Both the position numbers and the translations under genes were made by a program. Shown here in pieces: positions 12,725 through 50,260 of a DNA stretch of 64,000 nt. The stretch is from the IMG/VR virus record IMGVR_UViG_3300037878_000134, positions 16,139 through 80,138 of that record; one strand, given 5' to 3'. Source of the DNA: a virus. Lineage: Duplodnaviria; Caudoviricetes. A model generated the notes under the pieces. The model was given only the letters and a program-made list of their open reading frames with translations. It was not told the DNA's origin and did not search any database. The stretch's first letter is position 1; each line of letters opens with the position of its first letter.

Positions 12725-12730
12725 CCCCCG

Positions 12731-12946
12731 ATGAGCCGCCTCGAAGCACTCGCCGAGATGGCCGCGCGCCACGAGCTGACGCACGCCGAGGTGCAAGAGG
12801 CGGTGGGTATTCTGCTGCACGAGATGATCGCTCGGCTCGGCGCCGGAGCGATCCCGATCCCGCGGGGCGATGACGTTCTCACGATCCCGAACGTCATGGG
12901 CGAGCGTGGGAAGCCCCCCAGCAAGCCGCCGGAGGATGAGCCCTGA
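12731..12946 (+). CDS. Hypothetical protein
   Basis: Small ORF packed between neighbours. Confidence 0.45.
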   Translation: MSRLEALAEMAARHELTHAEVQEAVGILLHEMIARLGAGAIPIPRGDDVLTIPNVMGERGKPPSKPPEDEP

Positions 12947-12964
12947 TGGACTGGGCCCACCGGT

Positions 12965-15175: not shown

Positions 15176-15580
15176 GTGTCCCCTGACGTTGCCGCCGCGC
15201 TCGCGGAAGAGCTCAACAGGCTGCGCGCCGAGCGCGCGCGCATCGACGTCGAGATCAAGCGATACGAGAAAGCCCTCGCGGCCATCAGGGGGTTGACGGG
15301 CCGCGAACGGTCTGTTACTACTAATGGCATGAGCACAATGGAAGTCGCCTCTCGTCTAGCGCACAGCCGCGCTCGCTCCTCCGATCCCCTGGTCCTCGCA
15401 GCGATCGAGCACCGCTTGACCCTGCAGGCGCTGGCCGGGAAGGTCGGGTGCACCGCCTCGCTGCTCACCCAGGCCCGACGGGGCGGCAGAACGATCTCGC
15501 CGAAGGTGGCGCGCAAGATCGAGGGACTCATCGGTTTTGCGGCCACCCGCGAGAACTGGCCTGGATTACGCACCGAGTAA
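15176..15580 (+). CDS. XRE/Cro-like HTH regulator with N-terminal coiled coil
   Basis: LTLQALAGKVGCTASLLTQARRGGRTISPKVARKIE. Confidence 0.75.
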   Translation: MSPDVAAALAEELNRLRAERARIDVEIKRYEKALAAIRGLTGRERSVTTNGMSTMEVASRLAHSRARSSDPLVLAAIEHRLTLQALAGKVGCTASLLTQARRGGRTISPKVARKIEGLIGFAATRENWPGLRTE

Positions 15581-21679: not shown

Positions 21680-22332
21680 TTGCGGCTTTGTACGTCGAAA
21701 CCAATGGTGTCTATTTCGGCCGTACCGACGTGGATCCGTGGGACGAGTCACGCGATGCTCGTCAGTATGCGGGGCCGTGGCCTGTAGTTGCTCATCCTCC
21801 GTGTCAACGATGGGGAAGTTTAGCGATAGCCAACTTTGCGCGTTGGGGAGGGGAACATAATCGTCCAGGAAACGATGGTGGTTGCTTTCTGGCAGCCTTG
21901 ATCGCTGTGCGCAAATGGGGAGGGGTGTTGGAACACCCAGCAAAGACGCGAGCTTGGAAATTCTTTGGGCTTACCCGACCGTCGTCATCTGGCGGCTGGT
22001 CTCCTTGTGATTGCGGGTGGGTATGCGAAGTGTGGCAATCGGTCTATGGTCACAAAGCCAATAAGGCCACGTGGCTGTACTACTGCGGAGAAGCTAAACC
22101 AGTCGAGCTGGATTGGCGTCACTTGATAGGCACACACCAATGTGGTTTTCACGATCAAAGAGGAAAATCTCGAAACAAACCAACTATTTCAGGGCCTGCG
22201 GCTTCAAGAACACCCAAGGCTTTTTCTGAGGTTTTATTGAGTCTGGCTCGCACCTCTAGACCGGCGAAACAGGATGATCTGGATCTTGAGGATTCGCGGT
22301 CAAGTCGTGAACTTTTCATGGGTCTGCTTTGA
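21676..22332 (+). CDS. IS passenger: C5-cytosine methyltransferase-like protein (short phage type)
   Basis: VVAHPPCQRW catalytic-type motif, GGVLEHP and GH.ANKATWLY. Confidence 0.6.
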   Translation: MIAALYVETNGVYFGRTDVDPWDESRDARQYAGPWPVVAHPPCQRWGSLAIANFARWGGEHNRPGNDGGCFLAALIAVRKWGGVLEHPAKTRAWKFFGLTRPSSSGGWSPCDCGWVCEVWQSVYGHKANKATWLYYCGEAKPVELDWRHLIGTHQCGFHDQRGKSRNKPTISGPAASRTPKAFSEVLLSLARTSRPAKQDDLDLEDSRSSRELFMGLL

Positions 22333-23369
22333 TGAAAAATCTTCCATTCCCCAAGAGTCTCCTGGACTTCCAGCGTCTGTTCGGAAGTAATGAAGCTTGC
22401 GCCAAGTACCTGGAACAGGTGCGCTGGCCTGACGGCTGGACTTGCCCACATTGCCAAGATAAAGCCGATCCGATTCGGATCTCTACCCGTCCGCACGTCT
22501 TGCGCTGCCGGGCCTGCAAGAAGGAAACGAGGCTCACCGCCGGGACGGTCATGCAGGATAGTCACACCGACCTTCTGACGTGGTTCTGGGCCGCCTACCT
22601 CGTCACGAGCTTAACGCCGGGCATGTCGGCCGTACAGTTTCAGCGTCAGCTTGGAATCAAGCGATACGAAACGGCTTTCCAGCTTTTACACAAGCTCCGA
22701 GCTGGCATGGTCCGTATGGACGCAGACCAAATTGGCGGCGTCAACACGGTCGAGCTGGACGAGGTTTGGATTGGTGGACGAACCCGTGGTGAAGGTAAGG
22801 GCACCCATCACAAGACGCTCGTGGTGGGCTGCGTGGAGGTTTGCCATCGCAAAGGCCCCAAGCCGACCGAGAATCCCTTTGGCGAGCACAGCAAGGCCGT
22901 CCCGCGTCGATCTGGGAAGTACGCCGGACGCATTCGCCTAGCCGTGGTGTCTGATCGCACATCCGAGTCTCTGGTCGGGTTCGCGCGCTCGGCCATTGCG
23001 CCGGGCTCGGATGTCATCACGGACGACTGCCCGAGCTACGCAAGCCTCAAGAAGTACGATTTCAAGCACCAGGCTTTCGCGGAGAACGGCGATCCGAACG
23101 TGGCCGAGGAGAAGATGCCCCTCATTCACCTGGTCTTCTCAAACCTCAAGGCGTGGCTGCTGGGGATTCACCACGGTGTGAGTCCGCAGCACCTACAGAC
23201 CTACCTGAACGAGTTCACGTTCCGTTTCAACCGGCGCTTCTACCCGTTCAATTCGTTTCGGTCGATCTTGGGCATCGGGGTAAATACCAAATCGCTCACC
23301 TATGAAGAGCTTTACGACCCAGAGTGTAAACACAGCAGTTTCGCGGATGTTCACTTTGTCGGAGAATAA
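22329..23369 (+). CDS. IS1595 (ISXO2-like) DDE transposase
   Basis: RWPDGWTCPHC zinc ribbon, VELDEVWIGG, VITDDCPSY and HLQTYLNEFTFRFNRR. Confidence 0.95.
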   Translation: MMKNLPFPKSLLDFQRLFGSNEACAKYLEQVRWPDGWTCPHCQDKADPIRISTRPHVLRCRACKKETRLTAGTVMQDSHTDLLTWFWAAYLVTSLTPGMSAVQFQRQLGIKRYETAFQLLHKLRAGMVRMDADQIGGVNTVELDEVWIGGRTRGEGKGTHHKTLVVGCVEVCHRKGPKPTENPFGEHSKAVPRRSGKYAGRIRLAVVSDRTSESLVGFARSAIAPGSDVITDDCPSYASLKKYDFKHQAFAENGDPNVAEEKMPLIHLVFSNLKAWLLGIHHGVSPQHLQTYLNEFTFRFNRRFYPFNSFRSILGIGVNTKSLTYEELYDPECKHSSFADVHFVGE

Positions 23370-23821: not shown

Positions 23822-23974
23822 CTGTTTCGACGTCACTACCCCGAAAGGAAAGCAATTGTCTGACATGACCACACAGGCGCTTACGGAACAGTCGCGCAGT
23901 TGTGGAGAAGTTGTTGATTGGGACACACTCGGCGCCCCAGTCGCTTTCTCTTACCGCTCGATCCTGGTTGCCGG

Positions 23975-24433
23975 ATGAAATCATCACTGAAGAAAACGGC
24001 CCCGAACCTCATCACTGCCGCCCAGTTCGCGCGGATCCTCTCCCACACGCCCTTGGCGACATTCCGGGTGCTGCTCCTGCTCTTGTGGGACACGGGCATG
24101 CGTGTCGGCGAGGCACTCCCTTTGCGCCGGGTGCAGTTTTCCCGACGGGGAAACGGCGGAGGAGCAATCGAGCTTGGGCCCGACAGGAAGACCGGGCGAG
24201 CGCGGACGGTGTTTCTCACGAGACGCGCCGCCAAAGCACTCGAATCCTTGCCCGATCGCGGGCCCTACTTTTTCTGTGGGCGCGACGGCGAGCCGCTCGG
24301 CTACACGTACCTGTACAGAATCTTCGCAGTCGCCGTCAAAAGGGCAAAAGTGCCGTGGGCTCCGGGCCTGCACACACTGAGGAAGTCCGCGTTCTACCGG
24401 ATGACTCACCACTCGATCCTGGTTGCAAAATGA
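23975..24433 (+). CDS. Internally deleted, Tyr-less paralog of the adjacent integrase (mini-integrase or pseudogene)
   Basis: MKSSLKKTAPNLITAAQ is fused directly to FARILSH...DTGMRVGEAL...HTLRK and ends before the GH and Tyr motifs. Confidence 0.75.
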   Translation: MKSSLKKTAPNLITAAQFARILSHTPLATFRVLLLLLWDTGMRVGEALPLRRVQFSRRGNGGGAIELGPDRKTGRARTVFLTRRAAKALESLPDRGPYFFCGRDGEPLGYTYLYRIFAVAVKRAKVPWAPGLHTLRKSAFYRMTHHSILVAK

Positions 24434-25518
24434 AGCCGAAATCATCGCTCAGCAAAACAGATCCCAACCTCATTGCCGCCGCTCAGCTGCTCCTGTCCCA
24501 CGTCCAGGACCAACTGGAGGAATCGCCGACCATAAAGGACTTGTGGGAGAAGTATTTCGCCTCGGAGGGACAGCATCTCCGTAGTGCAGATAGACTGAGC
24601 GCGGCCTGGAAGTTCTTTCACGCGATCCGTGGCACCGACGGCATCCCGTTCGAGAAGCGCCAGGCGCTCACGATCGATAATGCCGTCATCGAAGAATTCC
24701 GGGCGGCCATGCGCATATCGCCGCTCAGCGGCCGTGCGACCAAGCCGGCGACCCGAAACCGAATGCTAAGCGTGGTTCAGCGCGTGCTCCACTGGTCGCA
24801 TCAGAATGGCCTGATCTCGCACATGCCGATTGCGGGAGTCCACCTCGAAGCGGAGCACAACATCCCGAAGACAAAATTGCGCACGGACGAGGAATTCGGG
24901 CGGATCCTCGCCCACATACCGGTAGCGACGTTCCGAGTGCTGCTTTTGCTGCTTTGGGATACCGGTATGCGTGTCGGCGAGGCTTTGAAACTGCGGCGGG
25001 TGCAATTCTCCCCACGCATTAACGGGGGTGGAGTCGTCGAGCTCGGGCGCGACGAAACCAAGACCGGGCGAGCGCGGACCGTGTTTCTCACGAGACGCGT
25101 CGCCAAGGCGCTCGAATCCTTGCCCGATCGCGGGCCCTACTTTTTCTGCAAGCCCAATGGCGGCACCTTCAGCTACGCCTATCTGTACAGGATATTTGCG
25201 TTGGCGGCCGAGAGGGCGAAGTTGCCCTGCGCTCCCGGCGAGACGATCCACCTGCACACGCTCAGGCATTCCGCGCTCTACCGGATGCGGACGCTCTGCC
25301 ACTGGCCCCAGCAGCTCTGCATGCGCCAGTCCGGTCACACGACAACCAGCGCGTTTTTTCGCTACGGCATCGCTGACGAGCAGGAGATGACCACGGCCAT
25401 GGACACGTATGAAAGCGTGCTTCAGGGCCGACTCCCACCGCGACCAGCGCACAACCCCCACGCGATGGAGAGCACGGAAGACTTGGCAAACGCAGACGTA
25501 CTGGCCGCTCAAAAATAG
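24430..25518 (+). CDS. int: Tyrosine recombinase/integrase
   Basis: DTGMR, KTG, HTLRH, SGHTT and FFRYG catalytic motifs; N-terminal core-binding domain. Confidence 0.92.
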   Translation: MKPKSSLSKTDPNLIAAAQLLLSHVQDQLEESPTIKDLWEKYFASEGQHLRSADRLSAAWKFFHAIRGTDGIPFEKRQALTIDNAVIEEFRAAMRISPLSGRATKPATRNRMLSVVQRVLHWSHQNGLISHMPIAGVHLEAEHNIPKTKLRTDEEFGRILAHIPVATFRVLLLLLWDTGMRVGEALKLRRVQFSPRINGGGVVELGRDETKTGRARTVFLTRRVAKALESLPDRGPYFFCKPNGGTFSYAYLYRIFALAAERAKLPCAPGETIHLHTLRHSALYRMRTLCHWPQQLCMRQSGHTTTSAFFRYGIADEQEMTTAMDTYESVLQGRLPPRPAHNPHAMESTEDLANADVLAAQK

Positions 25519-25704: not shown

Positions 25705-26099
25705 TTGCCAAAGCCTGCTCAGGGGGCCCTGCCTTGAGACGGACTCGACTGCTTGCCGAGCACGGCTCAGACCGCCTCACAACGCTTGCTCAGGGAGCTA
25801 CGCCTTGAGACATGCTGCCACATCCTGCAGCCATCCCGGCCCCGATGGGTCGCAACGCCCGCTCAGGGGGCCCTGCCTTGAGACGTACTGGACTGCTTGG
25901 CCAGCATGGCCCGGCCCGCACCACAAAGCCTGCTCAGGGGGCCATGTCTTGAGACACCGAATAGGTGATCTCGTGGTGCGCCGGATGGTCGCGCGCAACG
26001 CCCGCTCAGGGGGCCCTGCCTTGAGACAGTCGACCTGGCCGTCCATCATCGCAGCCGCGGCAGCTCCTAATGCCCGCTCAAGGGGCCACGCCTTGAGAT
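25705..26099 (+). CRISPR. CRISPR array B: 6 divergent 36-nt repeats, 5 spacers
   Basis: Repeats start at 25705, 25776, 25849, 25920, 25992 and 26064; core AA(A/C/T)GCYYGCTCARGG..CYTGAGAY; period 71-73 nt. Confidence 0.9.
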
Positions 26100-27590: not shown

Positions 27591-28841
27591 ATGGACTGGG
27601 CAAACGAAAAATACGTCCGCGTCTACACCCGGGACACGACCACATGGAAGCTGCTCCCGTGGCAGGCCAAGGCGATCTTGCCGCTCATCTTCCGCAAGGT
27701 CGATCGATCCGGGCTGCTCGACCTAGGAGCCGATGGCTTGCCGGGACTCGCCGCCCTTCTCGAGATGCCAGTCGAGCTCGTGGAGGCAGGGATGCCGGAC
27801 CTGCTGCGCAGGGAGATCGTGGTCATCGAGGGAGGCACCCTCGTCGTACTGAATTTCATCGAAGCGCAGGAGACGCCATCGACCCCGGCCAGCCGTCAGA
27901 GAGACAGCAGGGAGCGCCGGCGGGACATGATCCGGCGCGGCCTGGCGCCCGAGCAACGTGGGTCCGTCGTCTACTTTTTGCAGTCCGAAGACGGCGGCCC
28001 GATCAAGATCGGTCGGAGCGACGACGTCGCCAAGCGAATCCTGCAGATGCAAATGGCACGACCGGACAAGCTCGTCCTGCTCGCAGCCGTCCCGGGCGAG
28101 TACGCGGACGAGACGAGGATCCACCGTGCCTTCGCGGCTGAGCGAGTCTACGGCGAGTGGTTCGCGGCCTCCCCTGGGCTCGTCCAGCTGGCCGGCATCG
28201 CGGCGCGCGACAACGCGATCCCCTGTGACCTGTCACGATTCGTGACCAGTCACGCTGACGCGGTAGGGTGTGACATGTCACAAAACGTGACCAGTCACAG
28301 TGACACGGCGAGGTGTGACCAGTCACGAAACGTGACCAGTCACTCTGTACTGGACTATGCTGTACCGAGATCGCCGCGCGTGGGATCCGGATCTGGATCC
28401 GATCCTCTCTCAGTTCAGGATCCGGATCCGGAGCGCGCGCGTAGCAAGTTGCCTGCCAATGAGCCGGGCAAGCCCACCGCCCGGCACGTGCTCAACCGCT
28501 TCGCGGCAATCCGGGGCGAGGTGTGCGCCACCAACGTGCTGTTCTACCAGCCCACCGAGGCGGCCGAGCAAAAGGGCGCTGCCTGGCTGAGCGAGATGCC
28601 ACGGGACGCGGTCCCAGACATCGAGCCGGCGATCCGCCTGGCCTGCGAGCACGTCAAGCGCGGCGACGAGGGATGGACCGGCCAGAAGATGGCCGACGCC
28701 AACTTTCTCTGGGGAACCGTGCTCGCGAGGTGGACCGCCCTGCGCGAGGAGTTACACGGCTGCACTCCGCGGTCGCCTCCGCAACGAGGGGACAGGGCAA
28801 CCGAACGGCAGAAGCTCATCGACTCATGGGGGAACGCATGA
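27591..28841 (+). CDS. Replication initiator (lambda O-like) with embedded T5orf172/GIY-YIG-like domain
   Basis: N-terminal MDWANEKYVRVY; VYFLQSEDGGPIKIGRS...GEWF domain; internal iterons. Confidence 0.8.
   Translation: MDWANEKYVRVYTRDTTTWKLLPWQAKAILPLIFRKVDRSGLLDLGADGLPGLAALLEMPVELVEAGMPDLLRREIVVIEGGTLVVLNFIEAQETPSTPASRQRDSRERRRDMIRRGLAPEQRGSVVYFLQSEDGGPIKIGRSDDVAKRILQMQMARPDKLVLLAAVPGEYADETRIHRAFAAERVYGEWFAASPGLVQLAGIAARDNAIPCDLSRFVTSHADAVGCDMSQNVTSHSDTARCDQSRNVTSHSVLDYAVPRSPRVGSGSGSDPLSVQDPDPERARSKLPANEPGKPTARHVLNRFAAIRGEVCATNVLFYQPTEAAEQKGAAWLSEMPRDAVPDIEPAIRLACEHVKRGDEGWTGQKMADANFLWGTVLARWTALREELHGCTPRSPPQRGDRATERQKLIDSWGNA
28225..28343. repeat. Six palindromic GTGACnnGTCAC iterons (putative origin)
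   Basis: Copies start at 28225, 28242, 28270, 28287, 28315 and 28332, with alternating 17/28-bp spacing. Confidence 0.85.
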
Positions 28842-32917: not shown

Positions 32918-34789
32918 ATGGGCAAGCGCGAACAAGAAGCGTGGGAGATCTACAGACTAGATGCGCCAACGCATGCCGCTCGCCCCGTCGAGTTTTGGGA
33001 AGAGCTGAGCCCAGAATGGCAACGGCACTACCTTGCAATGCGCGACCGCCTCGCCGAGCTTTTCCGCCCCGAGTTCGTGCGGGAGACAAACGGGTCGCCT
33101 CCTCGGCCCAGCAGCCACCCGGAGCCGCAGGCCGAAGTGGCTGACAATGCGGCCAGCCTCCAAGTGTCGCCCGAAGAGCCGAAGACCGGGACGGGCCAAG
33201 GGCTCGAGAGCAAGAGCTGATGACCAACTCGAGATGGCGCGCGCTGGGCCGCGCACGGAGGCAACAGATTGCGCAGCGGATTGTGGATGTCGCTCCAGGG
33301 ATAATGGAGGGTCTCTATCTGAACATGCTTGAGCATCGCCCCGCGAAGATCGAAAGCCTCCACGCCTACAGGAGCGCCGTCCTGTCCGAACTGCAAGCCG
33401 GTGACGAAGAGTTCCCGCCGTTCTTTTTCGGGTTCGAGCTGGAAGCCATGCTCCGCGGATGGCCTCGCGATGCAGGTCGCTTCGACATCCCGATCTACGA
33501 ACACGACTGCGACAAATGCCAATACCTTGGGCAGATCTCCGGTTCTGTTACCCGCGATCTGGAGACGGACGCAGCAGTTGACGCCTACATCTGCACCGGG
33601 GCGGGCTACGCCTCGATCGCGCTTCGGCGCAGTGACGATCCCGAGGACTACACGTCGATGCCGTACTCTTGGGCCTTGAAGGGGCCGGCGCTGGCAGCCT
33701 TTCGGATCGCCATCGAACGTCTGCACTTCATTGGAGCGCCCGGGGTGCAATGAAACCCATGAAGAACAACCACGTGCCCGACCAACTGAAGCTCTACGCG
33801 GTAGTCCGGCCCGACGGCACGACGGTCAAGATTGTGACCGACGAAGAGTCAGCACGTCGGGCGATGGCGGAAGATCTGCAGAAGCAACTCAGCCCCAAAG
33901 AGTTCGAAGCGATTCGTTCATGCATGATGAAAGGAGAGCGCTCGCCAGAGGCCGATCGTCTGATTAGAACCGTCGACAGCTACAAGGTGGAGCTGGTCCA
34001 TTCCCGAAAGCTGAAAAAGGGGGAGCTAGCGCTGCTGCTCTCCGCCCAGGAAGCTGAAGAAGAAAAACCGAACGAGCACGATCGCCTGAGTTCAAGAGTG
34101 CGGAAGATCGTCAAGGCTCTAGCAAATCTCTTCGGCGACTTGAACGTCAATCCCTACGAAGCCGCGAGCGCCATGGGGTTGATCTTTACCTTCATGGCCG
34201 AGAGACAGCCCGCGAACAGGACCGCCATCGTAGGAACGCTCAGGACAACTGCGGACATCATTGAAGGGCCGGAGAGCGAGTAGCCCCGATGGCCTACGCC
34301 GAAGGAACCCTCGTCGCGGCCGAAAAATCGCGCTCCGAGATCGAGGCCCTCGTCCAGAAGTACGCTGGGCGCGATGCGGACTTCACCTACGGCAAGAGCT
34401 GCGGCCAGGCCGGCATCAGCTTCGTCGCCAAGGCACGCCGGGTGCAGTTCATGCTCCCGCTGCCCACGATGGAAGAAGCCAAGCAGGAAGCGCGAGACCG
34501 GCGGGCCCCATCGCGCGCTCCCTCGCCCGCGAGGTGCGAAGAGTGGTTGGAGAAAGAGACCCGCAGACGCTGGCGCTGCCTGCTCTTGATCATCAAAGCA
34601 AAGTTCGCCGCGGTGGAGATCTGGGAAGAGCTGGGGCAAGGCGACGCCGCCAAGACAGCCTTCGATCGGGAGTTCTTGAGCCACATCGTCAGCCAAGACG
34701 GCAAGACGATCTGGGACACGATCACGTCGATGCCCGGCCAGAAGCTCCTGACCGCGGCGCCAGACGCGGACAGCAAGAAGAGTCGATGA
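32918..34789 (+). CDS. Four hypothetical ORFs (32918..33220, 33220..33753, 33750..34283, 34289..34789)
   Basis: Overlapping or tightly packed starts and stops on the coding strand; the last resembles a common phage protein (MAYAEGT.V..EKSRSEIE). Confidence 0.55.
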
Positions 34790-35886
34790 CAAAGACCAGC
34801 ATTTCCTGGTGTCTCGGTCCCGACGGCGCGCCGGGCTTTTCGTGGAACCCCGTCGTAGGATGCTCGCCTGTCAGCGCCGGGTGCGCGCACTGCTGGGCCG
34901 CTCGCCTGGCCAGCACGCGGCTGGCACACTTGCCCGAGTACAAGGGACTGACCGAGCCAACGGTCATAATGTCCGCCAACCCGCCCGGAAGTGGCCCGGG
35001 CCCGTCAATCTGGACCGGCCAGACCCGCTTCCTGCCCGACCGCCTAGGCGAGCCGCTGCGCAGACGGCAGCCATCGGGGATCGCGGTGGGGCTGATGGGT
35101 GACATCGGCCATCCGACGATCCGAGATGTTGATAGGTTCCGCATCTGGCTAACGATGGCCAGGGCTTTTTGGCATCAGTTTTTCGTCCTCACGAAGAGAC
35201 CGGCAGAGCTTTCGCGCTTCATTGAGCGATGGTGCAGCGTAGAGGAGGACACCTTGGAGCCTCGGCTAGTGCGGGGCCCAGAAGAGGTCAGACGATGTTA
35301 CCGGAGTGAGCGGGCCAGACTCTTCGCCGACATGCTCGAAGGGATGGGAGAGCCTCCGCCTGGAGCTGCCTACCCGACGTTTGACTGGATGGAGGGCCCG
35401 AGGTGGTTCGAGGCGATCTTGGCCAACGTGGCGATCGGCGTCTCCATCGAGGACCAGGCCACGGCGAATGACCGCATGCTGGAGCTAGAAGAAACGCCGG
35501 CCGCCTTGCGCTTTATCTCGGCAGAGCCGCTTCTCGAGGATCTCCAGCGCATCGACTTGAGCGGGATTTCGTGGGTGATCGTCGGGGGAGAATCAGGGCC
35601 CAACGCCCGGCCATGTCACGTTGATTGGATCCGCTCCGTCATCAGAGAGTGTCGCGAAGCAGGCGTTGCCTGCTGGGTGAAACAACTCGGCACGAACTGC
35701 GTGGACCGCAACGACGCTGGTTTCGACGGGGCCGAAGGCGAATGGCCAGCAGGCACACGAACCCGAGGCAGCGAGAGGTTTCAGGGCGCGCCGGTGCACA
35801 TTCGCTTCCGCGACCGCGCCGGTGCCGACCCGTCCGAATGGCCCGAAGATCTCAAAGTGAGACAAACGCTGGAGGCTCGCCGATGA
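34786..35886 (+). CDS. Phage Gp37/Gp68 (DUF5131) family protein
   Basis: TSISW...WNPVVGC..VSAGCAHCWA, LTKRP, FISAEPLL and WVIVGGESGPNARP. Confidence 0.9.
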   Translation: MTKTSISWCLGPDGAPGFSWNPVVGCSPVSAGCAHCWAARLASTRLAHLPEYKGLTEPTVIMSANPPGSGPGPSIWTGQTRFLPDRLGEPLRRRQPSGIAVGLMGDIGHPTIRDVDRFRIWLTMARAFWHQFFVLTKRPAELSRFIERWCSVEEDTLEPRLVRGPEEVRRCYRSERARLFADMLEGMGEPPPGAAYPTFDWMEGPRWFEAILANVAIGVSIEDQATANDRMLELEETPAALRFISAEPLLEDLQRIDLSGISWVIVGGESGPNARPCHVDWIRSVIRECREAGVACWVKQLGTNCVDRNDAGFDGAEGEWPAGTRTRGSERFQGAPVHIRFRDRAGADPSEWPEDLKVRQTLEARR

Positions 35887-37700
35887 AACGAAAAACTAGT
35901 CACCTACCGACCCGGATCTACAGCTACGGCTGCCGCCTCCCAACCGAGGGGGCGCAGATCATCGAAGAGCAGCTCAAGCTCGCCCGCGTCTATCACAACA
36001 AGCTCTTGGAAATTGAGCTTGCGCGACGGGCGGCCGTGAGGACGGCGATGGCGTCCTGCCCTGACGTGGCGACGGCCGCAGCGGAGGTTGCGGAGATCGA
36101 TCAAAAAATCGAGGCCGAACGCGTGGTGATCAAGGCAGCTCGGCAGGCGGCTCGATCCGGGGCGGTCGATGTGCGGGCGAACAAAGAGCGATTGAAAGAG
36201 CTCTTCGTGGAAGTCAAGGCCGCGCGGCAAGCCCTCAAAGCGGCAAAGACCGCCAGCCGTACCCCGCAGATGCTGGCGAAATTCAAGTCGGCCCAGGAGA
36301 CGGCAAACCAAGCCGTGCGCGACGCGCGCGCGATCTGCGGCGTGTACTGGGGTACATACTTGCTGGTCGAGCAGGAGATCGAGGCAGCCCGCAAGAGCAA
36401 GACGGATCCCCAATTCCGCCGGTGGACCGGCACAGGACGCATCGGCGTCGAGTTGATGCACGGCCTGTCAGTTGCCGATCTCATGGCCGGGAAAGACACT
36501 CGGCTGCAGATCCACATGACCCCGGGCGCAAGCAAGCGGAGCCAGAGCATGGCCGTGGTCCGGATCCGCGTGGGATCCGCCGGTCGCGATCCAATCTGGG
36601 CCGCGCTCCCGTTCCGCCTGCACCGCCCCTTGCCAGCCGACGGCCGGGTGAAGTGGGCTTGGATTCATCGCACGTTCAAGGGCCGGTGGGTCAACTGGGA
36701 TCTGCAGATCGTACTCGAGGCCGCCTCATTCGCGGTGCCTGAACGCCCAGCCCACGATGGCGGCGTGGTGGCGCTCGATCTGGGCTGGCGCGCGCGACAG
36801 TCTACTGCGGGCGATGGTTCGCAGACCATTCGGGTCGGCTACTGGTGCGACGACCGCGGCCAGCACGGCGAGCTTGTTATGCCGGCCGATCTCAAGGGCC
36901 GCCTGGAGCACGCCAACAGTCTGCGGGCAATCGAAGACCGCAACTTCGACGCCGCGAAAGCGCGATTGATAGAATGGCTCAAGGAGCACACAGCTCCGGA
37001 GGGCATAGATCTGGCGAATCTCGCGGCCTGGAAATCCGCGAAGCGGTTGGGTCGGACGGTGTCCGAATGGGAGAATCTGGGCGAGGTGCCCTGCGACTTG
37101 CTGGCCTGGTGGAAGCAGCATCGCCACCTCTACGATTGGGAAAGCTCGGAAAGGGCCCGCGCGCTGAACGCTCGGAAGAACCACTACCGGAACATCGCCG
37201 CGCAACTCACGACTACCTACGCCGTCTTGGTGCTCGAAGACTTCGACATGCGCGGCGTGGTCGAGCTGAACCAGCCCGAGCACAAGGAAGACGATGCGGT
37301 CAAGCCCGCCCGGCGCAACCGGGTGTTCGCGGCGCCGTCGGAGTTTCGCCTGGCGCTCAAGTCGGCCGCGCCGCTGCGCGGTTGTCGCATCGCCGAATTG
37401 GCCTGCGCGTTGACAACCCAGCCCTGCCACGTGTGCGGAGAGAGCGAGCGGTGGGACGCGGCGAAGTCTGTCTGGCACACGTGTCGCAACGGGCACCAGT
37501 GGGATCAGGATTACAACGCGGCTCGCAATCTACTCGGTGTCTACGCGAGCGGCGATGCGCTGAAGCGCGAACCCCCGTCGGACAGAGGGAAAAAGAGCGA
37601 CGAAAAACCGAGCCTCGCGCACACGGAGGTGCAAGATAGCGAAACCACGGGCGAATCTCTGGTGCCCGTTGCAATGCCTGCTCAGGGGGCTGTGCCTTGA
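35883..37700 (+). CDS. cas12m: Cas12m-like (type V-U1/V-M) CRISPR effector, 605 aa
   Basis: YSYG N-terminus, long helical REC insertion, YWGTY, RuvC-I VALDLGWR, RuvC-II VLEDF, CHVC/C..GH zinc finger, RuvC-III DQDYNAARNL; stop codon lies inside the first repeat of the adjacent array. Confidence 0.8.
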   Translation: MKRKTSHLPTRIYSYGCRLPTEGAQIIEEQLKLARVYHNKLLEIELARRAAVRTAMASCPDVATAAAEVAEIDQKIEAERVVIKAARQAARSGAVDVRANKERLKELFVEVKAARQALKAAKTASRTPQMLAKFKSAQETANQAVRDARAICGVYWGTYLLVEQEIEAARKSKTDPQFRRWTGTGRIGVELMHGLSVADLMAGKDTRLQIHMTPGASKRSQSMAVVRIRVGSAGRDPIWAALPFRLHRPLPADGRVKWAWIHRTFKGRWVNWDLQIVLEAASFAVPERPAHDGGVVALDLGWRARQSTAGDGSQTIRVGYWCDDRGQHGELVMPADLKGRLEHANSLRAIEDRNFDAAKARLIEWLKEHTAPEGIDLANLAAWKSAKRLGRTVSEWENLGEVPCDLLAWWKQHRHLYDWESSERARALNARKNHYRNIAAQLTTTYAVLVLEDFDMRGVVELNQPEHKEDDAVKPARRNRVFAAPSEFRLALKSAAPLRGCRIAELACALTTQPCHVCGESERWDAAKSVWHTCRNGHQWDQDYNAARNLLGVYASGDALKREPPSDRGKKSDEKPSLAHTEVQDSETTGESLVPVAMPAQGAVP

Positions 37701-38687
37701 GACCATCAACGACGGGACCGTCGAAAAGATCGGCGAACGTTGCAATGCCTGCTCAGGGGGCTGTGCCTTGAGACCATCGGCGTGGCCAGGTTCGTCCGAG
37801 TGAGTGACGGTTGCAATGCCTGCTCAGGGGGCTGTGCCTTGAGACACGGGCGGGCAGAACAGCCCACGGGCGCGAGGAGTTGCAATGCCTGCTCAGGGGG
37901 CTGTGCCTTGAGACTTCTTGGGGGTGCCGGGGGGAGCATTCCCCTTCCCGGTTGCAATGCCTGCTCAGGGGGCTGTGCCTTGAGACACAAAGAGGGCCTG
38001 CTGACTGTTGTGAGCCTCGATGTTGCAATGCCTGCTCAGGGGGCTGTGCCTTGAGACAGCCACCGTTGCCGCCGCTCCCACCGCCGCCCGGTTGCAATGC
38101 CTGCTCAGGGGGCTTTGCCTTGAGACCCCGAATTGCTGGAGGCCGGCCCGGATCGGATCGTCCACCTGGAAATGCCTGCTCAGGGGGCAATGCCTTGAGA
38201 CTGCCCGACCTTTGCCCGCCAGATCGCAAAGCCTGCGCAAGGGGCTGTGCCTTGAGACCAGAAGTCGAGTGCATCGAGGTGGGCAGTAGGTCGTTGCAAT
38301 GCCTGCTCAGGGGGCTGTGCCTTGAGACACCACCAACTATTTCGTGGGGCCGGATCCCGCAGGGTTGCAATGCCTGCTCAGGGGGCTGTGCCTTGAGACG
38401 TCCATGTCCGATTGGTACCAAGACCGACCGACACGTTGCAATGCCTGCTCAGGGGGCTGTGCCTTGAGACACCTCCCCGCTCAGCTTGCTCGCTGTTTCG
38501 TCCAGTCTCTCAACGCCTGCTCAGGGGGCCACGCCTTGAGACACGATGTAGTGGGAATCGCCCAGCCGCACGGCCTCCGACCCGCAACGCCCGCTCAGGG
38601 GGCTATGCCTTGAGACCAGCGTGCGACTGCTGCCAGTCGGGCAGCTTCCTGCTCAGAAAGCCTGCTCAAGGGGCTACGCCTTGAGAC
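37668..38687 (+). CRISPR. CRISPR array A: 15 repeats (consensus GTTGCAATGCCTGCTCAGGGGGCTGTGCCTTGAGAC), 14 spacers
   Basis: Repeats 1-6 and 10-12 are identical, repeat 7 has one change, and repeats 8, 9 and 13-15 are divergent. Spacers are mostly 33-39 nt, with one of 21 nt. Confidence 0.97.
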
Positions 38688-38721
38688 GTGTACTCCGCGT
38701 CGTAGCCAAAGGAGATTGATC

Positions 38722-40341
38722 ATGACCGACGACAAGCAACCCGAGTTGACTGAGGCCAAGCGCGAGCCGCGCAGCCACGATTTGAAGTGCTGGCCCCCTC
38801 AGTTCGACGCGCTCATGGATGGCACAAAGACACACGAGGTGCGCGTTGATGATCGCGGCTACCAAGTTGGGGATCTGTTGGTGCTTCACGAGTGGGATCC
38901 GAACGGAAAGGAGTATTCTGGCCGCGAGATTCGCCGGGTAGTTTCTCACGTCACATCGGGAGGATCCTTCGGATTGCCTCCGGGCTTGGTGGTTATGAGC
39001 GTGAAGCCCGACATCGAGCACGGCCCCCGCCTGTCTGATGCGGAGCTACTCGGAAGCGTCGATGCCGCCGTGTGGGCTCGTGAATTTTGCAAGACCTGGC
39101 GACAGGTCGTCCACCCCGATCAGCCCTGCCCGGACGAAGGCTGGATGATCGCCTGGTTTGCGAATGCGATGATGGCGATGCACGATCACGTCGAACCGAA
39201 GCACGAGCAGCAGGACTCTTCCGCGCCCACGTCAGGCGACGCGGAGATGGCGCGCAAGTGCCTTGATGCTGGCAGAGCAGCACGGCGTCTGACTCCAATC
39301 GAGGACAAGGTTTGGGATAGCCAAGTGAGCGGGTGGGCTACGGCCATGTTCATCGAGGCTCGCCGCCTCCTCGAGGTCGATGCGCTGCGGGCCGAGAACA
39401 CGCGAATCTCCGACCATCTGGCGCGCCTCCTCGCCCGTATCGACGACTTCGAGCGACTCCACCAGGCGGACCAGGAGCGCATCGCCTACCTGGAGCATGA
39501 GCTGGCGATACTGCCGGCACCACGTCCACGAATTGTCTGTCTCTGCGGGTCCACGCGCTTCTATCAGCAGTTCAAGGAGGCGAACTACCGCGAGACGATG
39601 GCCGGGAAGATCGTGCTGTCGGTGGGGTTCTACCCGCACGCCCAGGTACAAGAACACGGACAGCATCTCGGCGTAACCGCCGAGCAGAAGGTCGCCCTCG
39701 ACGAGCTCCACAAGCGCAAGATTGACTTGGCTGACGAAGTCTTGGTGCTCGACGTTGGTGGGTACATCGGGGAATCGACCAAGAGTGAGATTGAGCACGC
39801 CAAGAGAGCCGGGAAGCCAATTCGATACCTGAGCGCCCAAAGCGCGCCCTCGGGAGCGCTCCGGGCCGAACAAGCCATCGGCGTCGCGTTGTCGGTGGTC
39901 ATGTGCAAGACCGAAATGGGAGAATGCCAGGAACTGGCCCCCGGTTTCCTTCGGCACTTGGCAGCCATGGGATGGACACTGGCGCCAGTGCAAGAACAAA
40001 CCGCTGCTCAGGCGCTCGCGAAGGTGACGCTGGCAATCGGCTCTCAGCGGCTCGCCATCCAGGAAGACTTCATCAAGGCGTTTGTCGAAGAGACCGGGGC
40101 TAAGATTGCGGACTGCGTGCTGAAAGAGGAGATCAAGGACGGGAAAATCTCGTGGTGGCTGGAGCATCGGCCCACGCCGAAGGCCCAGCCTCCCGAGGTC
40201 TACGTCGGGTTGGATCTTGGCAACAAGGCCTTGGACAACGTCGCGATTGGCGTGTCCATCGGAGAGAGGCACCCATCTGCTCCCGCGGAACCGCTGACCG
40301 CGTCGGCGCCGAACGTTCGCCTACCCGGAGAAAAGGAATGA
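38722..40341 (+). CDS. Multidomain protein: ASCH/DUF3850 domain + unknown domains + nucleoside 2-deoxyribosyltransferase-like domain
   Basis: HDLKCWPPQF...GTKTHEVRVDDRGYQVGDLLVLHEW; IVCLCGSTRF...HKRKIDLADEVLVLDVGGYIGESTKSEIEHA. Confidence 0.8.
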   Translation: MTDDKQPELTEAKREPRSHDLKCWPPQFDALMDGTKTHEVRVDDRGYQVGDLLVLHEWDPNGKEYSGREIRRVVSHVTSGGSFGLPPGLVVMSVKPDIEHGPRLSDAELLGSVDAAVWAREFCKTWRQVVHPDQPCPDEGWMIAWFANAMMAMHDHVEPKHEQQDSSAPTSGDAEMARKCLDAGRAARRLTPIEDKVWDSQVSGWATAMFIEARRLLEVDALRAENTRISDHLARLLARIDDFERLHQADQERIAYLEHELAILPAPRPRIVCLCGSTRFYQQFKEANYRETMAGKIVLSVGFYPHAQVQEHGQHLGVTAEQKVALDELHKRKIDLADEVLVLDVGGYIGESTKSEIEHAKRAGKPIRYLSAQSAPSGALRAEQAIGVALSVVMCKTEMGECQELAPGFLRHLAAMGWTLAPVQEQTAAQALAKVTLAIGSQRLAIQEDFIKAFVEETGAKIADCVLKEEIKDGKISWWLEHRPTPKAQPPEVYVGLDLGNKALDNVAIGVSIGERHPSAPAEPLTASAPNVRLPGEKE

Positions 40342-40345
40342 GCTA

Positions 40346-40723
40346 ATGGGTTGGTCAGTCGGGTACGATGAGAACTGGAAGCGCGACATCGGGTATGGAG
40401 TCCCGGCCACCTGCGATTACCCGGAGTGCGGTGCAGAGATTGATCGCGGTCTCAGCTTCGTGTGCGGGAGCGAACCATACGGCGGGGAGCACGGCTGCGG
40501 TCTCTATTTCTGTGAAAAGCATCTCTCATATGGGAGCGACAGGAAGCCCGTCCAACTGTGCTGCCGTTGTGCCCAGGGCAGAGAACCATTCGTCCCTACG
40601 CCGGACACAGAGGAATGGAATCAGCACAAGGCAACGCATCCAAGCTGGGCCGCATGGCGAGCGGAACATCCAGAGTTTGCTGCCTCCCATTCTTCCGGGA
40701 CGGTGGAGAAGCTGCGACCATGA
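40346..40723 (+). CDS. Cys-rich phage hypothetical protein
   Basis: RDIGYGVPATCDYPEC..EIDRGLSFVCG pattern. Confidence 0.65.
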   Translation: MGWSVGYDENWKRDIGYGVPATCDYPECGAEIDRGLSFVCGSEPYGGEHGCGLYFCEKHLSYGSDRKPVQLCCRCAQGREPFVPTPDTEEWNQHKATHPSWAAWRAEHPEFAASHSSGTVEKLRP

Positions 40724-41097
40724 AAGACCTGGAGATCCAGATCGCCAGGCTCATCCGCAGCGCCGTCAGGGGACAATGCCTGATGGCAATCAGCCGATTC
40801 CGCGCTGGAATTCTGAACGCGATACCTGGGCACGCGAGATCAACATCGCCGCCACGCGAGAGGCGCCTTGCTCCCGGACAGCCGGGCAAGCGAGGCCGAA
40901 AGGCTGAGCTCGTCGAATTTCGTGGCAAGACACAGACGCTGGACAAGTGGGCTGCGGACACCGGGATCGCAGTTGACACCATCCGCTGTCGTCTCAAGCG
41001 TGGGTGGACGATGGAACAGGCGCTGACGCGTCCTAGTCGCACCAAGCGGGCCGCTCGCGAATTGTCTGGCCCGGAAAATACACGCGTGCTAAAGTGA
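40720..41097 (+). CDS. Protein with HNH-associated DNA-binding-like C-terminus
   Basis: VEFRGKTQTLDKWA..TGI...TIRCRLKRGWTMEQAL. Confidence 0.6.
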   Translation: MKDLEIQIARLIRSAVRGQCLMAISRFRAGILNAIPGHARSTSPPRERRLAPGQPGKRGRKAELVEFRGKTQTLDKWAADTGIAVDTIRCRLKRGWTMEQALTRPSRTKRAARELSGPENTRVLK

Positions 41098-44285: not shown

Positions 44286-44393
44286 CTCGAAATGCCTGCT
44301 CAGGGGGCTATGCCTTGAGATTGGCTATCTGGACGCTGCCAAAGACGGGGGCATGCTCTCGCAAAGCCCGCTCAGAGGGCCATGTCCTGAGAC
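44286..44393 (+). CRISPR. Mini-array C: repeat-spacer-repeat
   Basis: CTCGAAATGCCTGCTCAGGGGGCTATGCCTTGAGAT, a 36-nt spacer, then CTCGCAAAGCCCGCTCAGAGGGCCATGTCCTGAGAC. Confidence 0.85.
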
Positions 44394-47075: not shown

Positions 47076-48596
47076 GTGGAAATCCAGTCGGTCGAGCTCG
47101 GTCAGAAGTTCGCGGCTCGCCCTCCACCCCTGGACTTTCTGCGCGCGGAAGCGAGCAAATACCGGCGCGAGCTCATCAAGCTGGCCCGCATCGACATGCC
47201 GACGTTTTTCTCGTTCGTCATGCGGGACGAGACCACGGGCGGCATGATGGAGGTGAGCGCGACGCAGAGGCTCTGGCATCGGCTGGCCGACAAGTACGAC
47301 CGGCTTGTGATGTGGTCACACATGGAGGCTGGCAAAACCCTCCAGATGTCCGTGGCGCGCACGCTCTGGGAGCTGGGCCGCAACCCGGGTCTCCGCTTCG
47401 CGATTGTGAGCGCGACGGCCACGCAGGCCGCGAAGATCGCAGGCCTCATCGGGAACTACGTCGTCAACTCGCCCGAGCTGCGGGAGGTCTTTCCCGACCT
47501 GGTTCCCGATCCCAATGGCCCGTGGAACACGCAGCAGCTCACGGTCAAGCGGCCCGGAGTCATGGCCAAGGATCCGAGCGTCCAGGTGGTAGGGATCGGC
47601 TCCAATATCCAGGGCTCGCGTCTCAACCGGGTGATCCTCGACGACGTGCTCACCTGGGACAACACGCACAGCCAGCACATGCGCGACGGGTGCTGGGACT
47701 GGTACCACAAGACGATACCAGGCCGCGTCTCGCCCGTGGATGGGCGGATCCTCGGGATCGGGAACGTCTGGCACAACCAAGACTTGCTGCATCGGCTGGC
47801 AGACAACCCGCTCTGGCACGGCTTCAAGTTTCCCATCCAGAACCCGGACGGCAGCTCGACCTGCCCGCAGCGCTGGTCGCTTGAGCGCATCGCGAAACGC
47901 CGGCTGGAGCTCGGCCCCATCGAGTCGCAAATCCAGCTCGACTGCGTCTGCGTGGACGACTCGGCGTCTCGATTCCGGCGCGATTGGATCGATAAGTGCT
48001 TGGGGCGCGGCAATGGCAAAGTGCCGCCGTATGCCATTCGCGAAGTGCCGTATGGCTGCAGCGTCTATTGCGGGGTGGACCTGGCGGTCGGACTCGACGC
48101 CAAGAACGACCTAACCGTGCTCTTCGTTTTGCTCATCCACCCGAATGGAGATCGTGAAGTCCTGTGGGTGGAGAGCGGGCGTTGGAAGGTCACGGACATC
48201 ATGGCCAAGGTGGTGGAGTTCTCCCGCCGCTTCCACCCCATCTTCGTGGTCGAAACGGTCGCCGCGCAAGATTGGCTCCGCCAGATCCTACAAGAGACGA
48301 CGGCGATCCCCATCGTCCCGTACAACACGACAGCCGCCAAGAAGTGGGACGCGACGTTCGGCCTTGAGACGATGGGAGCGGAGATGGCGGCGGCGAAGTG
48401 GATCATCCCCAACCAGGGCGGCCAGTGCAGTCCCGACATCCAGGCCTGGATCGGCGAGATGCTGGTCTACAACTCCCGTGACCATACCGGCGACAGGTTG
48501 ATGGCCGCCTTTTTCGCCAAAGAGGGCGAGCGTCTCTCCCAAGGCGACAGGCCTCCCGAGGTCGGCGAAGTACGGCTGAAGTTGGGAAACTGGTAA
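47076..48596 (+). CDS. terL: Terminase large subunit
   Basis: Walker A EAGKT, Walker B VILDDV, RNase H-like GVDLA and DHTGDRLMA. Confidence 0.9.
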   Translation: MEIQSVELGQKFAARPPPLDFLRAEASKYRRELIKLARIDMPTFFSFVMRDETTGGMMEVSATQRLWHRLADKYDRLVMWSHMEAGKTLQMSVARTLWELGRNPGLRFAIVSATATQAAKIAGLIGNYVVNSPELREVFPDLVPDPNGPWNTQQLTVKRPGVMAKDPSVQVVGIGSNIQGSRLNRVILDDVLTWDNTHSQHMRDGCWDWYHKTIPGRVSPVDGRILGIGNVWHNQDLLHRLADNPLWHGFKFPIQNPDGSSTCPQRWSLERIAKRRLELGPIESQIQLDCVCVDDSASRFRRDWIDKCLGRGNGKVPPYAIREVPYGCSVYCGVDLAVGLDAKNDLTVLFVLLIHPNGDREVLWVESGRWKVTDIMAKVVEFSRRFHPIFVVETVAAQDWLRQILQETTAIPIVPYNTTAAKKWDATFGLETMGAEMAAAKWIIPNQGGQCSPDIQAWIGEMLVYNSRDHTGDRLMAAFFAKEGERLSQGDRPPEVGEVRLKLGNW

Positions 48597-48607
48597 GATA
48601 CGAAGCA

Positions 48608-50260
48608 ATGGCAAGCGCACTTTCCCGAGATCCGGTCTATGGCGCGGCCCGCACGGTCGATGCCGTCAACGACAAGATGCTGGTGCAGGCCAAGCTCAAG
48701 CGGCTGGGCATGTCGCCGCGACAGATGGAGCTGAACCGGATGTATTCCTACTTCCGCACCCAGCAGCACGAGAGCTGCGCGATCGACTGGGACGGCTCCG
48801 AGCACTCCGACCCGGTCACCCGAGAGGCCATTGTGACCCAGCGAACGATGCCGCCGGGCTACAAGGACCTGGGCAGCATCTCGGATCTGCCGCTGCGCTA
48901 CCGCCGCCCTTCCGTGCCCTGCCACCTGTGCAAGGTCATCGTCTCCCGCTTCACCGGGCTACTCTTCAGCGAGGAGACGCACCCGACGTGGAAGGTGCTC
49001 GGAGATCCCGACACCGAGGCTTGGATTGCCGCCGTGACCAAGCACTATGGCCTGTGGTCCAAGCTGGCGCTCGTGCGCGACATGGGCGGGGCGATGGGCA
49101 CGCCCGTCATGGGCTTCAAGATCATCGATGGCCGCGTGATTTTCGAGGAGTTCGACGCGCGCTGGTGTTTCCCCAAGTTCGAGGTCAGAAACCCGAAAGA
49201 GCTTGAGGAGCTCGAAGTCAAGTACATCTACCCGAAGGACGTGCAAGACGAAGAGACCGGCGACTGGCGCGAGGAGAACTACTGGTACCGGCGGCTCATC
49301 ACCAAAAGCGCCGACGTCCTGTGGAAGCCGATCGCCGTGGGCGATGGGGATGAGCCCAACTGGCAGGATCCGCAGAACGTGGCGGACGGGCGCGAGCACA
49401 ACCTGGGGTTTGTCCCGATTGAATGGGGCCAGAACATCGAGGTCAGCGGCGATGTGGACGGCGATCCCGATTGCATGGGCGCGTACGACTACTTCGATCG
49501 CATCGGCGAGCTGGACTCTCAGGGCCACAAGGGAGCCCTGCGGAACGCCGACCCCACCCCGGTGGTGGAGAGCGACGGGAATCTCACCAACGTGAAGCTC
49601 GGCTCGGAAATGGCGCTCAAGCTCGAGAAGGGCGCCAGCGCCCACTACCTGGAGATCGCCGGCGGCTCGGTGAAAGCTGCGGCCGATCAGGCCGATCGGC
49701 TGCGCAGCAAGGCGCTGGAGGTGTGCGAGTGCGTGCTGCCCGACCAGGAAGCCACGGACGGAGCGCCCCAGACCGCCACCGAGATCCACAAGCGCACCGC
49801 CGCCATGTACGCCAGGGCCGCCCGCTTGCGCGAGCAGTACGGAAACCGGCTGGTGGTGCCGCTTATGCAGAAGCTCGTGCGCGTCGCCCGAAAGGTCACC
49901 TCGGCCAGTAAGGGCCCGGATGGGAGCATCGTTCGCGGCGGCATCAGCCTGCCTCCCGCCATAGAGGGCAAGCAAGCAAAAGAGATCCGGCTCGGGAACG
50001 TGCAGAGCGCCCAGCTCGAGCTGGTGTGGCCGCCCTTCTCGGTGCCGACCGCGGACGAAGGCAATACGGTCGTGACCGCCACGGCAGCCGCGGTCAACGC
50101 CCGCGTCGTGTCGCGCGAAACCGCCGTGCGACATGTGGCGCCCGTGTTCAACATCGAGGACATCGACGCGGAGCTGGAGAAGATCAAGAAGGACGGGCCA
50201 CCCCCCGGCCAGGACCTGGCCGCGGCCGGACTGGGGAATCTGCAGCAAGGGGCGGAATAG
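48608..50260 (+). CDS. Portal protein
   Basis: 550 aa directly after TerL; HNLGFVPIEW, SRETAV..VAPVFNIEDIDAELEKI (SPP1-like). Confidence 0.85.
   Translation: MASALSRDPVYGAARTVDAVNDKMLVQAKLKRLGMSPRQMELNRMYSYFRTQQHESCAIDWDGSEHSDPVTREAIVTQRTMPPGYKDLGSISDLPLRYRRPSVPCHLCKVIVSRFTGLLFSEETHPTWKVLGDPDTEAWIAAVTKHYGLWSKLALVRDMGGAMGTPVMGFKIIDGRVIFEEFDARWCFPKFEVRNPKELEELEVKYIYPKDVQDEETGDWREENYWYRRLITKSADVLWKPIAVGDGDEPNWQDPQNVADGREHNLGFVPIEWGQNIEVSGDVDGDPDCMGAYDYFDRIGELDSQGHKGALRNADPTPVVESDGNLTNVKLGSEMALKLEKGASAHYLEIAGGSVKAAADQADRLRSKALEVCECVLPDQEATDGAPQTATEIHKRTAAMYARAARLREQYGNRLVVPLMQKLVRVARKVTSASKGPDGSIVRGGISLPPAIEGKQAKEIRLGNVQSAQLELVWPPFSVPTADEGNTVVTATAAAVNARVVSRETAVRHVAPVFNIEDIDAELEKIKKDGPPPGQDLAAAGLGNLQQGAE

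Follow-up and report, generated by a model that had tools for sequence, protein, structure and literature searches.

The locus examined here raises the question of what a phage does with a CRISPR effector whose nuclease site appears complete: whether such a protein cuts DNA or only binds it. The window, that is, the whole 64,000-nt stretch of DNA that was analysed, comprises bases 16139-80138 of one 80,138-bp IMG/VR virus record (IMGVR_UViG_3300037878_000134). An open reading frame (ORF) at 35883-37700 on its plus strand, referred to below as cas12m, encodes a protein of 605 aa and runs into an array of CRISPR repeats. An earlier reading of the bare sequence (the original prediction) had assigned this protein to type V-U1/V-M and had regarded it either as a nuclease-competent, TnpB-proximal member of that group or as a repressor with an intact site. 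The first part of this assignment was upheld: the protein is, with near certainty, a bona fide type V-M (formerly V-U1) Cas12m effector. As to its action, the analysis favours an RNA-guided silencer, which would bind DNA in a manner dependent on a protospacer-adjacent motif (PAM) without cutting it, most plausibly against competing mobile elements; this reading is considered probable, though well short of certain.

Family of the protein and of its repeats

Sequence searches against PDB sequences were performed with phmmer, using the single protein, and with hmmsearch, using a profile of 40 relatives. In the single-sequence search, the best full-length match was 23vw_A, deposited as "CRISPR-associated DNA-binding protein Cas12m" (E 1.7e-70). 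Cas12m2 (2.5e-23), GoCas12m (8pm4; 2.5e-17) and UnCas12m4a (4.7e-15) were also found, all five solved Cas12m sequences being covered from end to end within E 1.7e-70 to 4.7e-15, whereas Cas12f and TnpB chains scored E >1. The profile matched all five solved Cas12m sequences end to end (E 3e-150 to 5e-58). The next match, a TnpB-like Fanzor, reached 2e-15 over the C-terminal RuvC/TNB part only, leaving a gap of more than 40 orders of magnitude. Profile matches to TnpB and Cas12f were confined to the C-terminal 70-130 residues, with E values of 1e-7 to 1e-11 (1e-9 to 1e-11 for Cas12f).

The same grouping was obtained at the level of the fold. An AlphaFold2 model of the protein had a mean predicted local distance difference test value (pLDDT) of 84.4 and a predicted template modelling score (pTM) of 0.75. 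When this model was compared with solved structures by Foldseek, the template modelling (TM) score was 0.79/0.80 to Cas12m2 (8hhl) and 0.78 to GoCas12m (8pm4), and about 0.4 (query-normalised) to Cas12f, TnpB and Fanzor (0.36-0.44 for Cas12f). The identity in the structural alignments with MmCas12m2 and GoCas12m was approximately 21-22%. The model contains WED strands, four long REC helices (approximately residues 24-170), an RNase-H-like RuvC domain and a TNB zinc finger, as well as a lid-like loop of low confidence (residues 456-472) and a disordered tail (residues 562-605); the domain limits were read from the secondary structure of the model and inferred by comparison with Cas12m2. The predicted shape is thus that of the Cas12m fold: bilobed, with a coiled-coil ("sickle") insertion in REC, a RuvC domain and an inserted TNB zinc finger. 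In addition, H247/R248 align with His269/Arg270 of Cas12m2, which are the crRNA (CRISPR RNA)-recognition residues of the WED domain and read the 3' end of the repeat (PMC10442227). This pair is invariant or nearly so in the 40 relatives.

MmCas12m2 (8hhl/8hio) and GoCas12m (8pm4) therefore resemble the window protein in the fold, in the VAL-x-LGWR motif and in the His-Arg pair. Their guides are also alike, consisting of a 36-nt pseudoknotted repeat with a ...GAGAC-like end and requiring no trans-activating CRISPR RNA (tracrRNA) (PMC10442227, PMC11013384). They differ in having an H-D-D triad and, in the case of Cas12m2, an HCCC zinc finger, and in their bacterial origin (Mycolicibacterium, Gordonia).

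The repeats of the window were then compared with such guides. The 36-nt repeat is present in 38 copies, all on the plus strand, which are distributed over four arrays. The main array (37668-38687) holds 15 repeats of 36 nt with spacers mostly of 33-39 nt, and its last repeats are degenerate. The second array (25705-26099), with six variant repeats, lies between the integrase gene and tRNA-Met. A mini-array of two variant repeats and one 36-nt spacer (44286-44393) is found upstream of the ParB-methylase and terminase genes, and the fourth array (55664-56654), with 15 variant repeats, is located within the head-gene region. A pseudoknot pairing repeat positions 9-11 with 21-23 (3 bp) and 14-20 with 28-34 (7 bp) was tested on a set of 40 distinct repeats, drawn from this phage and from three of its relatives. 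In this set, 99.3% of the cells were paired, and 4 of the 10 pairs had changed on both sides in a compensatory manner. Values as high as these were not obtained in any of 500 shuffles, and when the structure was shifted by 1-3 columns, the paired share fell to 24-58%. Positions G13 and A35 of the repeat were invariant. In more distant viral relatives, both stems were kept with other sequences, the short stem being GCC/GGC, CCC/GGG, AAC/GTT or TCC/GGA. No anti-repeat was found on the opposite strand at <=10 mismatches. The arrays, the pseudoknot and the lack of any sign of an anti-repeat or tracrRNA thus bear out that the locus uses CRISPR repeats rather than an omega-RNA. The exact core of the repeat was found in IMG/VR only in the record of this phage.

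A transposon-type TnpB of the IS200/IS605 kind that works with an omega-RNA, the repeats being incidental, was rejected, as far as sequence analysis can decide, as having hardly any probability. It is true that Pfam recognises only a Cas12f1-like TNB domain in the protein, and that the NCBIfam TnpB model NF040570 also touches its C-terminus only; however, that model scored 34 bits against a cut-off of 100, and the 605-residue chain, compared with about 400 aa for a TnpB, carries the coiled-coil REC insertion of Cas12m in addition to the RuvC and TNB zinc-ribbon core that it has in common with TnpB and Cas12f. Overlap of the guide-RNA scaffold with the 3' end of the ORF is likewise shared with TnpB and is the sole TnpB-like trait of the locus, but the RNA in question comprises 38 repeats that are separated by diverse spacers and fold into a crRNA pseudoknot with covarying pairs, and related loci have arrays directly downstream as well. 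Neither Y1 TnpA nor a second copy of cas12m was found in the whole virus record. Hence the protein groups with Cas12m and not with IS200/IS605 TnpB, and its description as TnpB-proximal was borne out by neither its sequence nor its fold. Cas12f (type V-F), an effector of 400-550 aa that works with a tracrRNA, was also considered and rejected, since only the TNB region matched and the TM scores stayed at the low values given above.

The RuvC site and the choice between binding and cutting

The three RuvC motifs of the protein are VALDLGWR (residues 296-303), VLEDF (450-454) and DQDYN (541-545), and their acidic residues were located by alignment. D299 of RuvC-I (codon 36777-36779, plus strand, as for the other two) aligns with His317 of MmCas12m2, and E452 of RuvC-II (codon 37236-37238) aligns with Asp485. 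The positions in MmCas12m2 were derived from the phmmer alignment to 8hhl, in which the chain numbering equals the native numbering +2 (chain His319/Asp487 being native His317/Asp485). Both His317 and Asp485 are catalytic-site residues of MmCas12m2 (PMC10442227). D543 of RuvC-III (D-Y-N-A-A; codon 37509-37511) belongs to the D-x-N-A-A motif common to 23vw and is matched by TnpB/TNB models; its column is invariant in 40 aligned relatives, and so is that of D541. The three canonical acids that had been read from the sequence are thus D299, E452 and D543, and they do occupy catalytic positions.

The same reading had described the zinc finger as intact. In the TNB zinc-finger region (37425-37496, plus strand), this was correct for three cysteines, C515, C518 and C534, which are invariant among the relatives, but not for the fourth, since the consensus Cys is replaced by Asn536 both here and in a relative whose protein is 92% identical (locus L002). 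It is possible that His538 or the widely conserved His532 substitutes as the fourth zinc ligand. The nearest solved homologue, 23vw_A (577 aa), shares the motifs A-[IL]-D-L-G-W-R, V-L-E-[ED]-F and W-D-Q-D-Y-N-A-A with the window protein and has D-E-D at the aligned positions; its second zinc knuckle is CxxC, whereas that of the window protein is C-R-N-G-H. The DNA-binding role of 23vw_A is known here from the name given by its depositors alone.

The retention of D-E-D had been proposed as the trait that sets this protein apart. This was not confirmed when the family was surveyed. At 50% identity, the family comprises 3,601 clusters when the threshold is E <=1e-3, and 1,782 clusters when it is E <=1e-30. 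Among the 233 nearest relatives, D-E-D stands at the three aligned columns in 178 (76%); the remaining relatives have NDD, NED, NGD, NPD, NAD, HDD and other combinations, the third Asp being hardly ever lost. In a FastTree tree of 229 of these 233 sequences, the window protein falls within a well-supported 25-row clade with 24 D-E-D members. Parsimony gave 31 switches between D-E-D and other states on this tree, and at least 19 when only well-supported branches were counted. As judged from the alignment and the tree, D-E-D is thus the background state, given up many times independently, and it is probably ancestral in this branch of the family. The clade description in PMC10442227 (citing Wu et al. 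2022) lists HEK/HQK, HDD, DED/NED and DND triads and assigns the DED/NED/DND types to clades 3 and 4, so the triad of the window protein is the one described there for these clades. A survey of 2024 covered 134 variants; set against these, the 1,782 clusters found at the stricter threshold indicate a very large family that is mostly D-E-D, and the many losses of the triad turn the question of why non-cutters keep it into a testable evolutionary one.

Biochemical work on other members of the family speaks for binding without cleavage. Four D-E-D, two H-D-D and two N-D-D orthologues showed PAM-dependent binding and no cleavage of double-stranded DNA (Bigelyte et al. 2024, PMC11013384). In the case of one D-E-D member, MsCas12m (RuvC D274), the purified protein left target DNA and RNA as well as collateral substrates uncut, and its D274A mutant still processed pre-crRNA (PMC11013384). 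These D-E-D orthologues belong to the same family and have the same triad as the window protein, but they are bacterial. In Cas12m2, the swap of HDD to DED did not restore cleavage (PMC10442227). Two observations made here agree with the silencer reading: the many switches on the tree indicate that the triad is dispensable in the family, and the phage tolerates a spacer that matches its own genome. This spacer is the fifth of the main array and the eleventh genome-wide (37987-38021, plus strand); 34 of its 35 positions agree with genome bases 15320-15353, which lie outside the window.

On this reading, silencing would proceed as follows. The cas12m gene would be transcribed together with the upstream gene, which encodes a DUF5131 protein, and the transcript would run without a gap into the CRISPR array belonging to the effector. 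The 36-nt repeats fold into a pseudoknot of the Cas12m type, and the protein is expected to process them into crRNAs itself. By homology, the crRNA-protein complex would then bind PAM-flanked double-stranded DNA tightly and, while leaving the target uncut, keep it from being transcribed or replicated. Such targets would probably be plasmids or phages that compete within the lysogen or the infected cell. D299, E452 and D543 would in this case probably serve the metal-dependent binding of the displaced strand and not the cleavage of double-stranded DNA. If true, an effector that binds DNA without cutting it could plausibly serve its temperate phage for superinfection exclusion that causes no DNA damage.

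Several points weigh against this explanation. In the discussion by Omura et al., DNA hydrolysis by a two-metal mechanism was left open for the DED-type clades 3 and 4 (PMC10442227). That 24 of the 25 rows of the clade and 76% of the 233 relatives keep D-E-D suggests that the site does something that is under selection. The tested D-E-D orthologues were compared with the window protein by description only. The Arg residues of the Arg-rich pocket of Cas12m2 are not matched by Arg in the window protein, although this was seen in a pairwise alignment in which the coiled-coil region aligns unreliably. Finally, the 5' flank of the self-match, GGTACA-T, is no known Cas12m PAM, and therefore the tolerance of this match may say nothing about cleavage.

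Some of these points lead to an alternative in which the protein is a catalytically active Cas12m: its D-E-D site would cleave or nick the target, perhaps only as single-stranded DNA or in the displaced strand, or only under special conditions, and the phage would thereby destroy its competitors. Such activity is conceivable because the triad is clearly conserved in the 25-row clade and the tested orthologues include no close relative that is known. The position of all three acids at catalytic sites and the invariance of both D543 and D541 fit this alternative, and nuclease activity was suggested not only for clades 3 and 4 by Omura et al. but also, as a speculation, in a preprint on the myxophage MV-1 (10.64898/2026.09.14.751636). 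Nevertheless, it is regarded as unlikely. All four D-E-D orthologues that were assayed failed to cleave double-stranded DNA, MsCas12m had neither target nor collateral activity, and the engineered DED triad remained inactive. Moreover, DNA-binding protein is the label under which the nearest solved D-E-D homologue was deposited, and the family shows many independent losses of the triad. In the TNB domain, the consensus Cys does not serve as the fourth zinc ligand, and the phage tolerates a spacer that matches its own genome almost perfectly.

Spacers, the self-match and the stop codon in the first repeat

The spacers were examined for their targets. BLAST of all 38 spacers against the genome of the phage itself gave one significant match only, that described above. 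Its target lies in the middle of a 559-aa gene located directly after baseplate J; the single mismatch is at spacer position 1, which is PAM-proximal, and it is the template strand to which the crRNA would anneal. Three spacer prefixes, including that of the self-matching spacer, had no exact match in IMG/VR, and none of the spacers of four metagenomic relatives target this phage.

In the relative with the 92%-identical protein, the array contains eight repeats. Its two distal spacers (L002 3672-3777) correspond to those at the distal end of the main array (38617-38722), with identities of 35/35 and 34/35, while all of its cas-proximal spacers differ. As read from the sequences, this polarity of the main array is the one expected of spacer gain or loss at the cas-proximal end, here in a phage that carries no cas1 or cas2.

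The junction between cas12m and the main array has a peculiar structure. The TGA stop codon of cas12m (37698-37700) lies within the first repeat (37668-37703), in ...CCTTGAGAC. A stop codon within the first repeat and in the same frame was also found in five relatives whose proteins are 45-92% identical to that of the window, with the first repeats at L002 3220-3255, L004 11816-11851, L027 6023-6058, L028 1719-1754 and L029 1836-1871. The last residues of the protein, about ten in number, are thus encoded by the repeat and are conserved, with ...PAQGAVP or ...TAQGFE[PS] recurring in several homologues. This overlap of the repeat with the end of the ORF resembles that of the TnpB ORF with its omega-RNA. 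The cut that Cas12m proteins make in pre-crRNA falls near the 5' end of the repeat (PMC10442227; 10.64898/2026.03.26.714355). Since the stop codon lies inside the first repeat, processing at this site would part the cas12m ORF from its stop codon. Hence, processing of the first repeat could couple the maturation of crRNA to the fate of the cas12m mRNA.

These features raise another alternative, namely, that the system mainly regulates the phage itself or its host. In this case, guides from arrays placed in different transcription units, the self-matching spacer among them, would tune late-gene expression or lysogeny; the cas12m mRNA would be severed upstream of its stop codon when the first repeat is processed, which would limit the synthesis of Cas12m. 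The presence of an integrase gene in the phage is in line with this explanation, and so is the self-match in the gene after baseplate J, for which pairing with the template strand is predicted; however, only 1 of the 38 spacers matches the phage, its target lies mid-gene and not in a promoter, a known Cas12m PAM is lacking and the mismatch is PAM-proximal. The four arrays are oriented with the genes and packed between ORFs, with no terminator predicted at the main array, the one array region that was scanned, but the turnover of spacers between close relatives looks like that of ordinary immunity. The limitation of effector synthesis draws on the cutting of pre-crRNA near the 5' end of the repeat, on the persistence of the stop codon within the first repeat down to 45-55% protein identity and on the conservation of the C-terminus encoded by the repeat. 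Taken together, this self-regulatory explanation appears improbable and is a weaker one, which is compatible with the others.

A bolder combination of both alternatives may also be formulated. The D-E-D site could be used catalytically in this phage clade, as that of a nickase or a conditional nuclease, and/or crRNA processing could cut the mRNA of the effector, so that one Cas12m supplied by four arrays in different transcription units would regulate genes of the phage and of its competitors in a programmable, self-limiting way. This proposal is held to be doubtful. Whichever explanation applies, the phage offers a compact natural test case, in which a single effector is combined with four arrays, with a spacer that matches the phage itself and with an ORF whose end falls in the first repeat.

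The arrays outside the effector locus showed some irregularities. In the fourth array, spacers of 2, 12, 15 and 56 nt occur among those of 33-39 nt, and all 15 repeats differ from the consensus of the main array with the pairing of the pseudoknot kept. In the array on the integrase side, spacers 1 (25741-25775) and 3 (25885-25919) are approximately 70% alike, which suggests an old duplication of a two-repeat unit.

Phage genome, neighbouring genes and related loci

The virus record from which the window was taken has direct terminal repeats, its final 127 bases being identical to its first 127 bases, and its CheckV completeness is 100%. The ORFs of the window with a high G+C content at third codon positions are almost all on the plus strand. 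Genes for the large terminase (47076-48596), the portal protein (48608-50260) and a tyrosine integrase (23902-25518) were recognised, together with two DNA methylases, a PD-(D/E)XK exonuclease and one tRNA-Met, and the Baseplate-J gene sits immediately ahead of the window in the record. The record is thus a complete temperate tailed phage of approximately 80 kb.

The gene upstream of cas12m (34786-35886, plus strand) encodes a DUF5131 protein (phage Gp37/Gp68-like; Pfam PF07505, E 1.2e-56; phrog_2045). Its start, as read from the sequence, is most likely at 34786, where it again overlaps the preceding gene by ATGA. The ATG of cas12m overlaps the TGA of the DUF5131 gene (35884-35886), giving ATGA at 35883-35886, and GGAGG is found 8 nt upstream of this ATG. 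The placement of the effector gene in a phage operon, which had been noticed from this overlap, was therefore substantiated, and the arrangement of the two genes indicates that they are translationally coupled. The same pair of genes is present in the 92%-identical relative.

On the other side of the main array, a gene at 38722-40341 (plus strand) encodes a protein with an N-terminal ASCH/DUF3850 (RNA-binding-type) domain followed by about 440 residues that match no family. No more than 35 nt lie between the last repeat and the ribosome-binding site and ATG (38722) of this gene, and the slot after the array is filled likewise in the close relative L002. A scan for promoters and terminators, which covered positions 33000-41000 with the main array, gave hits at chance level, with no convincing terminator in or beside the main array. 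Because neither a gap nor a convincing terminator separates cas12m, the main array and the next gene, it is likely from this arrangement that cas12m and its array are co-transcribed.

The absence of cas1 and cas2, which had been stated for the window, could be extended to the whole record: no Cas1, Cas2 or Y1 TnpA was found in its 80,138 bp, the search controls being positive.

A phage-borne Cas12m with D-E-D is as such already known, given that D-E-D members have been tested, that V-M systems in prophages were noted in a 2024 review and that a similar phage case was described in a 2026 preprint. The latter concerns MvCas12m of the temperate myxophage MV-1, a phage-encoded protein of 610 aa with D305/E463/D555 and an adjacent array but no cas1, cas2 or cas4, for which no protospacers were identified (10.64898/2026.09.14.751636). 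It differs from the present case in that its genome comes from a Polyangiales-associated metagenome-assembled genome and contains one array of eight spacers (10.64898/2026.09.14.751636). Compared with MV-1 by description, the phage of the window has its 38 repeats spread over four arrays, its cas12m stop codon is located inside the first repeat, and a single spacer matches the phage itself.

Closer relatives were sought among viral sequences. A megablast search of positions 34000-40500 against GenBank phages gave no match, and tblastn detected only Virus Rctr197k, at 35% identity. In this 197-kb genome (KX853510.1), positions 112477-114168 encode a full-length Cas12m-like protein that is annotated only as "similar to transposase". 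A single-protein search of IMG/VR for related loci found none, whereas an alignment-based query returned 16 distant viral contigs of 7-372 kb with relatives at 27-36% identity, most of which have an array directly downstream. The jumbo-phage contig L020 (IMGVR_UViG_3300027985_000843, 371,739 bp) has, at 11817-13096, a related 36-nt repeat family in at least 19 copies, beside which only a partial Cas12m-like match (query residues 127-365) was found.

Two further elements of the window were recorded. A gene for an IS1595-type (ISXO2-like DDE) transposase (22329-23369) lies in the stretch of lowest G+C content in the window (0.58 compared with approximately 0.64), and this element probably represents an insertion sequence within the phage. 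A 45-bp unit with the inverted motif TGTGAC...GTCACA is repeated in tandem at 28224-28347, in 2.8 copies. These copies are situated inside or adjoining an ORF with a MUG113/T5orf172 domain (27591-28841), and they resemble iterons or operators.

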